64,000 nt of DNA, taken from positions 5,894 through 69,893 of IMG/VR virus record IMGVR_UViG_3300037311_000222. One strand, 5' to 3'. The stretch is from a virus. Taxonomy: Duplodnaviria; Caudoviricetes. Below, in pieces: positions 4,120-51,813 of the stretch (positions are counted from its first letter, which is position 1; every line of letters starts with the position of its first letter). Both the position numbers and the translations under genes were made by a program. The notes under the pieces are model-generated. The model worked only from the letters and a program-made list of their open reading frames with translations, made no database searches and was not told the origin of the DNA.

Positions 4120-4483
4120 ACAGCTCCTTTAATTTTATAATTAATACAATATTACCACTAAACTCGTTATTATTAAAATTATAAACCAACTCGGGTCTAA
4201 TTACAAAGTTTTCTTTTTCATATTTAAGCTTTTTAAATGGACGAGTAGTGATGCGTTGAGTAACTATTGGTATTACCCATGCTCCATAAATTAAATCATC
4301 GTCTTGAAGACCTGTATATTTATAAAAAGTATTTTTAGAGCGTTTTTGTAATTCTTTAAACTCAGCGTTAACCTCTGGATATAGGAAGAGTGCTCTGCGG
4401 GCAGTGTCGGATGCGTTGCGATATTCTTCGTTTTGAACACCGAACAATGATAATGCTAGTATTGTTTTACCGCTCAACATCAT
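4109..4483 (-). CDS. hypothetical protein
   Basis: Overlap-coupled ORF in minus-strand operon. Confidence 0.6.
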   Translation of the reverse strand: MMLSGKTILALSLFGVQNEEYRNASDTARRALFLYPEVNAEFKELQKRSKNTFYKYTGLQDDDLIYGAWVIPIVTQRITTRPFKKLKYEKENFVIRPELVYNFNNNEFSGNIVLIIKLKELYAK

Positions 4484-4709
4484 CGTCTAATATAAAAAAA
4501 TTATAATTGTACAGTTCTACGAATAACTTTACAAAATTTTTGTTTTCTTCTTTTCTTATATATTGATTTATGGCGTAAACATCTCCAGGAGTTACAAAGT
4601 CATAGTTTAACTTAAAAACCATATCAATAAACTCTTCTCGATGTGGATGTTTTTTAATAAACTTAAATAAAAAATAATAGAACTTATTGATTAACGTCGT
4701 CATTACCAA
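4467..4709 (-). CDS. hypothetical protein
   Basis: Coupled ORF in operon. Confidence 0.55.
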   Translation of the reverse strand: MVMTTLINKFYYFLFKFIKKHPHREEFIDMVFKLNYDFVTPGDVYAINQYIRKEENKNFVKLFVELYNYNFFILDDDVER

Positions 4710-51120: not shown

Positions 51121-51364
51121 AACGTAACGTATCCGGGCGCGACTCCGGCTCTTGTATCTACTAAGGTTTAACCGCACGTTCGGAGCCGTCGCCCATCGAA
51201 CTTTGATTCTTACAACCATACTTTAAAAGCTTAGCAATGCGTCTGCTTTCGGTAATGACCCTTATGTTCAATACGCTCTATTGTCTTTCGTGTGTGCCTA
51301 GCACTTCGAGATTATTCTATTGAGATGACACATCCTACCAGTGCTGCTTTCCACCTTACGTTAC
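51121..51364 (-). ncRNA. unassigned structured ncRNA candidate, about 245 nt
   Basis: Own promoter; 5' GTAACGTA pairs with 3' TACGTTAC followed by T-run; several internal helices; no ORF. Confidence 0.65.
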
Positions 51365-51370
51365 AAATAC

Positions 51371-51399
51371 AATATACTAAATTTTTACTTATTAATCAA
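51371..51399 (-). promoter_or_regulatory. sigma70-type promoter for ncRNA candidate
   Basis: TTGATT-17 nt-TATATT; +1 predicted at G 51364. Confidence 0.6.
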
Positions 51400-51591
51400 G
51401 AAAAATCTTAGCAAGGGTTAAACTGTACGAGCCGCTTCGCGGTCTTTTGCAACCACACAGGCAAGGTTTTGGACACGAGACCCCTTGTTAAGAATAAAAA
51501 GTCTACAACATACACCGTTAGTTGCCAGTCTAACCCTATCATTACGTGTTTGGCAGAACACATCCTAGTCACTTGTGTATGTCTTATAGGT

Positions 51592-51813
51592 TCAAGACTT
51601 TTTTGAAAAAAACCATCTAAACCCAACTTTACCGTTTTCTTCAATACTTTGTTGCACTAATTCAATTTGAGACGGTAACAACCGAGTTTCAGCAAGATAA
51701 GCTTTAGCAAAGTCGCTTAATATCTTATCGCGCTGCTCCAATAATTGCTTAGCTATGTCTTGTTCATTTCCAGAAAAAGAAACTTCTTTATTTGTTTGAT
51801 CTTTTACGTTCAT
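51592..51813 (-). CDS. hypothetical protein
   Basis: SD AAGGA; clean ORF. Confidence 0.65.
   Translation of the reverse strand: MNVKDQTNKEVSFSGNEQDIAKQLLEQRDKILSDFAKAYLAETRLLPSQIELVQQSIEENGKVGFRWFFSKKS

Follow-up and report, generated by a model that had tools for sequence, protein, structure and literature searches.

The window analysed here comprises 64,000 nucleotides (nt) of a 69.9-kb uncultured virus contig (positions 5,894–69,893 of IMG/VR record IMGVR_UViG_3300037311_000222). Its minus strand, on which all of the genes discussed below are located, carries a 241-nt RNA element (51364–51124) that is a member of a family of multi-helix folded phage RNAs absent from Rfam 15. In minus-strand order, the locus consists of genes for a family B DNA polymerase, an exonuclease subunit and an M78-like protein, a gene of 73 amino acids (aa) that ends at 51592, a gap at 51591–51107, a 40-codon open reading frame (ORF), a dATP/dGTP pyrophosphohydrolase-like gene, two small genes, one of them encoding a NIF-type phosphatase, and a gene for a B12-dependent ribonucleotide reductase. 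The element lies within the gap.

The element is closed by helix P1, in which residues 51364–51357 pair with 51131–51124 over 8 base pairs (bp). Immediately upstream, a promoter scan located a sigma-70-type promoter-like site (51399–51371), composed of a −35 hexamer at 51399–51394, a 17-nt spacer and a −10 hexamer at 51376–51371, with 9 of 12 consensus positions matched. The predicted transcription start, 51364, is also the first base of the helix, 7 nt past the −10 hexamer; this combination of promoter and helix start occurs once in the window, compared with 0.02 expected by chance. An earlier annotation of the window (the original prediction) had proposed a promoter of the element's own that starts at this base, and paired ends followed by a run of T; both descriptions stand, transcription itself being predicted. 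A single G separates the 3′ strand of P1 from a run of six U (51122–51117), which is followed by the ribosome-binding site (RBS; 51114–51110) of the 40-codon ORF (51106–50984).

Within P1, helix Pa joins residues 51354–51352 to 51294–51292 (3 bp in the window, 5 bp in other members of the family). It is separated from helix P2 (6 bp, 51345–51340 with 51305–51300) by a purine-rich internal loop, whose 5′ side (51351–51346) forms a conserved block of the alignment. Helix Pc (4 bp, 51274–51271 with 51157–51154) closes a 3′ subdomain that the window shares with two other members, L099 and L104. The last hairpin, H (51149–51132), consists of a 5-bp stem (51149–51145 with 51136–51132) and an 8-nt loop (51144–51137). 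An insert of about 70 nt (51238–51167), which corresponds to a gap in every other member of the alignment and is without comparative support, carries two small hairpins and a stretch complementary to the last hairpin.

The GC content of the element is raised (0.455, compared with about 0.27–0.39 in the flanks) and the longest ORF overlapping it is 47 aa, so the earlier description of a GC-rich, non-coding region is accurate. ARAGORN found no tRNA or tmRNA gene in the window, and none of the 4,227 models of Rfam 15 matched anywhere in it at gathering thresholds. A scan with permissive filters, covering the window copy and members L013, L118 and L099, returned only matches at chance level elsewhere or far below threshold. 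The folding energy of the window element is no better than that of shuffled sequences (z = −0.50), and the z-scores of the L013 element (−0.33) and of the whole 556-nt gap (−0.64) are similarly weak. Because the minimum-energy fold is no better than shuffled, a single sequence cannot show a structured RNA here; the evidence for structure is comparative, not thermodynamic.

Relatives in uncultured phages

Relatives were gathered by synteny, by pattern scans and then with a covariance model. The syntenic phage L013, reached through the reductase gene, carries in the same slot between the 73-aa gene and the pyrophosphohydrolase gene an element of 207 nt with pairing ends, the same promoter layout, a U-run and an RBS; the eighth pair of its closing helix is G–C, where the window has A–U. 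The version in L099 is 211 nt long, and five of seven closing-helix pairs are changed on both sides, with several internal blocks near-identical to the window. A further copy, in L102, is cut by the contig end. A pattern made up of the conserved 3′ hairpin, a U-run and an RBS retrieved L103, L104, L105, L106 and L107 from viral contigs, as well as L118, whose 15.5-kb contig had been binned with an Omnitrophota genome and which, at 147 nt, is the minimal version. A covariance model built from four members then retrieved L020 without the requirements of the pattern. In total, nine full-length members are available (147–241 nt, window included; the other eight span 147–211 nt), together with two copies cut by contig ends and two short remnants, all of them in uncultured phage contigs.

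The two remnants were reached through the neighbouring M78-like gene. L044 (4757–4832) has a promoter, the same closing helix, a U-rich run and an RBS, with 62 nt inside the helix, and L045 (4731–4757) keeps promoter, closing helix, U-run and RBS with just 11 nt inside. These short forms are best read as products of decay by internal deletion, the interior of L044 resembling fragments of the long form. No hairpin is present at the slot in the syntenic relatives L096/L097, L098, L048 and L130.

Other searches were less productive. When the region and two other members were compared with 50,697 phage records by BLAST, nothing real emerged, and the element was found in no cultured phage. Early pattern scans with the P1 sequence of the window, or with an overly strict 3′ motif, yielded chance matches and L013 only; scans that included the downstream pyrophosphohydrolase led to short-form relatives in other gene contexts, without the element. 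A survey of IMG/VR lists thousands of unnamed candidate structures, and the motif may be among them (PMC10690425).

The conserved fold

Four helices (P1, Pa, P2 and H) are common to all nine full-length members, their strands having been located by coordinates. P1 is 6–8 bp long and is canonical in 63 of 63 cells; it exists in nine different versions among the nine members and shows double changes at all seven pairs. Pa (43 of 43 cells canonical, four versions, 5 bp except for the 3 bp of the window) includes a C–G to U–A exchange at two positions. P2, counted over 3–6 bp, is canonical in 43 of 43 cells and occurs in eight versions, and the 5-bp stem of H is canonical in 44 of 45 cells, with six versions and double changes at two positions. 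The four helices together are canonical in 193 of 194 cells, whereas sliding the partner strand by 1–3 bases leaves 31–41% pairing. The internal helix that had been picked out in the window at 51345–51340/51305–51300 is thus real, being the covarying family helix P2.

Two further analyses returned the same architecture. In a model-based alignment of 11 copies, which is fitted to the structure, 98.6% of cells pair, double changes occur in 11 of 17 pairs, and the observed covariation score was reached by none of 500 shuffles. From a plain MAFFT alignment of four members, RNAalifold independently recovered the same 17 pairs, which make up three helices. The census of wobble pairs counts four G·U and no A·C, which places the fold on the gene-carrying strand. 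Pc, restricted to the window, L099 and L104, is paired in 12 of 12 cells with three different sequences, in register with the flanking conserved blocks.

Conservation extends to unpaired positions. Two bases after P1 and short junction blocks after Pa are conserved, and the purine-rich internal loop between Pa and P2 has 6–8 nt on its 5′ side and mostly 6 nt on its 3′ side, the latter (51299–51295 in the window) deviating in the window and in L104. Kink-turn and loop E readings of this internal loop, judged by eye, did not fit. The 8-nt loop of H is nearly invariant: in 10 of 11 copies it differs solely at the last base. Length and content are variable in the middle domain and at the tip of the P2 arm, and the small hairpins that the original prediction had counted as features in the P2 arm and in 51238–51167 lie in parts that are absent or different in other members; as family features they are withdrawn. 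Its broader claim, of an uncatalogued structured phage RNA matching neither tRNA, tmRNA nor other known families, is borne out by the negative ARAGORN and Rfam scans together with the comparative support for the fold, the Rfam comparison and the collection of homologues having been its own proposed checks.

Two alternative pairings were considered, the first of them the possible pseudoknot or switch of the original prediction. The complementarity on which that idea was based, between 51194–51183 and 51151–51135, is present in the window and is used by the minimum-energy fold, but one of its strands lies in the window-only insert and the other is the conserved, covarying hairpin H, with which it competes; across the family it would be at most a local variation. 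The second alternative is family-wide. A 7-nt 5′ strand, made up of the 5′ strand of Pa and one base on either side of it, is able to pair with six bases of the H loop and the next base, in 7 of 7 positions in seven members, 6 of 7 in L020 and 4 of 5 in the window. Such pairing excludes Pa and would prolong P1 into one long closing stem. It is shortest in the window, which also carries an additional segment that could pair with the H loop. Pa is proven by covariation, and the pairing of the 5′ strand with the loop is no more than consistent with the data.

Gene neighbourhoods

The element occurs once per genome, including two genomes with terminal repeats, and always on the coding strand inside a module of replication, recombination and nucleotide genes. 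Upstream genes belong to recombination and repair (Sak4-like annealing protein, SSB, exonuclease VIII, SbcCD-like proteins) or to a polymerase B cluster. Downstream, a pyrophosphohydrolase-like gene is first or second in five loci; elsewhere the element precedes a primase-helicase gene followed by polymerase A, polymerase A itself, polynucleotide kinase-phosphatase followed by RNA ligase, or unknown small genes, the downstream genes in L104 and L107 being those for primase-helicase and DNA polymerase. A tie between the RNA and the pyrophosphohydrolase was dropped, as the enzyme family is absent from two complete element-bearing genomes; it was found in one of the five other genomes tested, and no protein common to all element-bearing genomes was found. 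The variety of downstream genes likewise lends no support to the specific link to adenosylcobalamin or to nucleotide metabolism as such that had been suggested for the window.

A U-run begins 0–2 nt after the 3′ strand of P1 in all 11 copies that retain a 3′ end, interrupted in two of them. Among the seven copies found without requiring one, five have a run of at least 5 U and the other two an interrupted U-rich stretch, whereas of 135 RBSs of other genes in the loci only 10 have at least 5 T in the preceding 14 nt; the run characterises the element rather than the gene starts of these phages generally. The downstream RBS begins 0–7 nt after the run, and in 10 of 11 loci no more than ~25 nt separate the 3′ end of the element from a start codon, L020 being the exception. 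At the 5′ boundary, the window, L013, L099, L106, L044 and L045 have a sigma-70-type promoter whose −10 hexamer ends 6–7 nt ahead of the start of P1. No sigma-70-type promoter was seen in L103, L104, L107, L118 and L020, where the element begins a few bases past the upstream stop codon, so that a promoter of its own holds for the window and not as a trait of the family, about half of whose members have no recognisable one.

In the window, the first gene after the element is the 40-codon ORF. Its stop codon overlaps the likely GTG start (50987, set by homology with L013 and L099) of the pyrophosphohydrolase-like gene (50987–50484), and a strong RBS lies ahead of it, an arrangement that suggests translational coupling of the two. 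A small ORF occupies the same position in L102; there is none in L013 or L099.

Several other features were recorded in and around these loci. A long closed structure (−53.2 kcal/mol, z = −1.6) is also predicted for the 190 nt of the window that separate the element's promoter from the 73-aa gene (51595–51400), with only a doubtful overlapping ORF inside and no homologue in L013 or L099. The family B DNA polymerase of the window (55687–53307) is split into adjacent ORFs of 549 and 244 aa, the second being 58% identical to residues 579–820, from the catalytic aspartate motif on, of the single 823-aa polymerase of L045; the same split is present in L044 (553 and 247 aa), and L045, L096 and L098 have one gene of ~820 aa. 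The reductase, uninterrupted in the window, is interrupted in relatives after about residue 311, by an insert of ~950–1,030 nt in L013 (6933–7882) and at the same site in L014–L017, and in L099 (3299–5444), where the product has intein-splicing and LAGLIDADG homing-endonuclease domains; judging by these sequences, the inserts are probably inteins. Just upstream of the promoter of the L013 element, a tRNA-like stretch (1705–1780) has a good acceptor stem, a T arm and a CCA end; its score with the Rfam tRNA model is only 19 bits, below the threshold of 29, and it is not called by ARAGORN. A 6-nt repeat forms a long run (4359–4614) that adjoins the L020 element on its upstream side and reads as Gly-Leu or Gly-Ser repeats in two frames.

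A possible control point before replication genes

Because the RBS adjoins the U-run and leaves no room for another promoter, the downstream genes must be read through the element, which makes the RNA a leader or an intercistronic RNA. The family probably gates the expression of the DNA-replication and nucleotide-metabolism genes just downstream. As to how, we lean tentatively, with something short of even confidence, towards a conditional terminator or leader, or a processing point. Host RNA polymerase would start at the first base of P1; the host enzyme is suggested because no phage-type RNA polymerase was detected in these genomes, a weak negative, since control genomes also gave no signal. 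A helix directly followed by a U-run is a stop signal for bacterial polymerases, and P1 with its U-run may stop transcription conditionally or mark a point of processing. Since P1 closes a large fold, its timely formation should depend on the folding of the interior. The internal loop and the 8-nt loop could be the contact sites for a factor, whether a small molecule, a phage or host protein or the polymerase itself, that would decide between stopping and read-through, and a toggle might be provided by the 7-nt 5′ strand, which could pair either with its partner in Pa or with the H loop.

A number of observations weigh against a conditional stop. A stem that encloses 130–225 nt is atypical for an intrinsic terminator, and P1, at 6–8 bp, has a modest GC content; such terminators have a compact G+C-rich hairpin with a loop of ~3–10 nt, and a terminator scan of the window does not report P1 and its U-run. 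Only L045 comes near such a hairpin, with an 11-nt loop and a weak fold (−6.4 kcal/mol). This remnant keeps promoter, hairpin and U-run before the same gene without the core, which speaks against stem and U-run being a strong constitutive stop. The RBS is not sequestered, and no conserved partner competing with P1 was found among the members. The pairing of the 5′ strand with the H loop varies by wobble-type changes alone, without double compensation, is mismatched in L020 and is short in the window. In L020, moreover, the next plausible gene is ~100 nt away; the downstream genes differ among members and point to no single metabolite; and the U-run and RBS were part of the search pattern that retrieved six of the members.

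Comparison with riboswitch attenuators brings out both sides of the riboswitch-like leader that had been proposed for the window. The element shares with them a multi-helix junction closed by a sequence-variable helix, conserved unpaired nucleotides in internal and hairpin loops, a place in the 5′ leader, a U-run that follows the structure at once and the possibility of mutually exclusive pairing, and in the window it abuts the RBS of a nucleotide-metabolism operon, so the anatomy fits. It differs from them in having no known ligand, in preceding genes that are all of replication, repair or nucleotide functions but of different kinds and not of one pathway, and in that the closing helix itself, not a compact hairpin apart from it, would serve as the stop signal; none of the Rfam riboswitch models matches it. 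The family does combine a covarying multi-helix fold and conserved unpaired positions with a 5′-leader location in 10 of 11 loci. Even so, that it represents a new class of sensor RNA, either a riboswitch or the target of a phage or host factor, seems decidedly unlikely. With a sensor of this kind, the condition of the host, such as its nucleotide pools, an alarmone or a defence signal, might determine whether phages that depend on its polymerase hold back their replication genes or release them, the 5′ strand toggling between its Pa partner and the H loop.

Among phages, cis-acting control of early operons by RNA is represented by the nut sites of lambda, with a terminator before the replication genes, and by the put RNA of HK022, which as a nascent RNA binds the polymerase that is transcribing it and suppresses its pausing and termination (PMC9378689). 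The element resembles these in position only, as a cis-acting RNA that follows an early promoter or precedes replication genes, beside a terminator-like signal; its phages, like the lambdoid ones, would depend on host RNA polymerase. They are not lambdoid, and at 147–241 nt with at least four helices the element shows no likeness in sequence or fold to put, with its two short hairpins, or in sequence to nut, with one.

An unlikely alternative to a conditional leader is a stand-alone, stable non-coding RNA that acts in trans as a decoy, sponge, guide or anti-defence factor, made from its own promoter, ending at the U-run and protected by a fully paired 5′ end, with read-through into the operon a side effect or a second role. 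Promoter, closed ends and U-tail do resemble a complete small-RNA gene; the element is present in a single copy per genome, it is lost or decayed in close relatives in the manner of an accessory gene, the nearly invariant 8-nt loop could serve as a seed or binding site, and in L020 the element is not tightly joined to a gene. Against it, about half of the members start just past an upstream stop codon without a recognisable sigma-70 promoter, and the lack of promoter room after the U-run makes essential replication genes dependent on read-through. The packaging RNA of phi29 (RF00044) offers a partial parallel, with its similar size, paired 5′ and 3′ ends, junction, hairpin loops and single copy per genome. 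In contrast to that RNA, the element matches no Rfam model, forms part of the mRNA that carries replication genes and is absent from close syntenic relatives, which would be impossible for an essential part of packaging.

It is distinctly unlikely that the element is a passive part of the message, a structure that shields the mRNA from 5′-end-dependent decay or marks a point of RNase cleavage and senses nothing. The leader of Escherichia coli ompA is a 5′-terminal stabilising stem-loop, and the element shares with such stabilisers a helix that begins at the first transcribed base, as predicted in six loci, and leaves no unpaired 5′ end; the remnants L044 and L045, which keep just hairpin, U-run and RBS, are hairpins of this sort. 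The purine–pyrimidine spacer and U-run after P1 also resemble the sites preferred by RNase E, a preference known from enteric bacteria, and by that analogy could be a cleavage point. Stabilisers of the ompA type, however, are simple hairpins without conserved internal architecture. Protection by a hairpin requires neither four covarying helices nor loops that are conserved (the internal one) or invariant (the one of 8 nt), and the complex core is kept across phages whose proteins are 40–60% identical.

A translational operator, in which a phage replication protein would bind H and repress translation downstream, is very improbable. H has a 5-bp stem and a conserved 8-nt loop 15–30 nt before the start codon of a replication gene, just upstream of the RBS, and by analogy has the shape of the T4 gene 43 translational operator, reportedly described by Tuerk and Gold in 1990. 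Unlike that operator, H is part of a much larger fold and does not overlap the RBS, and its loop is the same whether the phage polymerase belongs to family A or to family B, and before unrelated genes. Nor was any protein found that all of the genomes share, the pyrophosphohydrolase family being present in only one of the five others tested.

A DNA-level element, such as a single-strand initiation site or a transcription-dependent origin, is hardly credible: the element is always in the replication module, once per genome, and single-stranded DNA would also tolerate G·T wobbles, but RNA is indicated by the promoter start, which coincides exactly with the first helix base, and by the U-run and RBS on the same strand, and the element is dispensable in close relatives, as an origin would not be. 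Other identities were set aside. A group I intron is contradicted by the lack of any match to the Rfam intron models and by the flanking genes, each of which is a complete gene of its own in relatives, whether the element is present or not; a mobile element with terminal inverted repeats and an RNase III site were discarded on anatomy, and the closing-helix sequence is not enriched in the window as a repeated operator or phage-wide motif would be.

The RNA is situated at a control point, the way into the replication genes, in several unrelated groups of uncultured phages. Large, complex, structured leader RNAs have been the source of earlier new riboswitches, antiterminator RNAs and protein–RNA switches, and the present family, small as it is, has unusually clean support for its fold. 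Even as a passive structure it would be a defined RNA, with a minimal version of 147 nt (L118) suited to probing and structural work. If the element does sense a signal, it would show how phages without a polymerase of their own time their replication.
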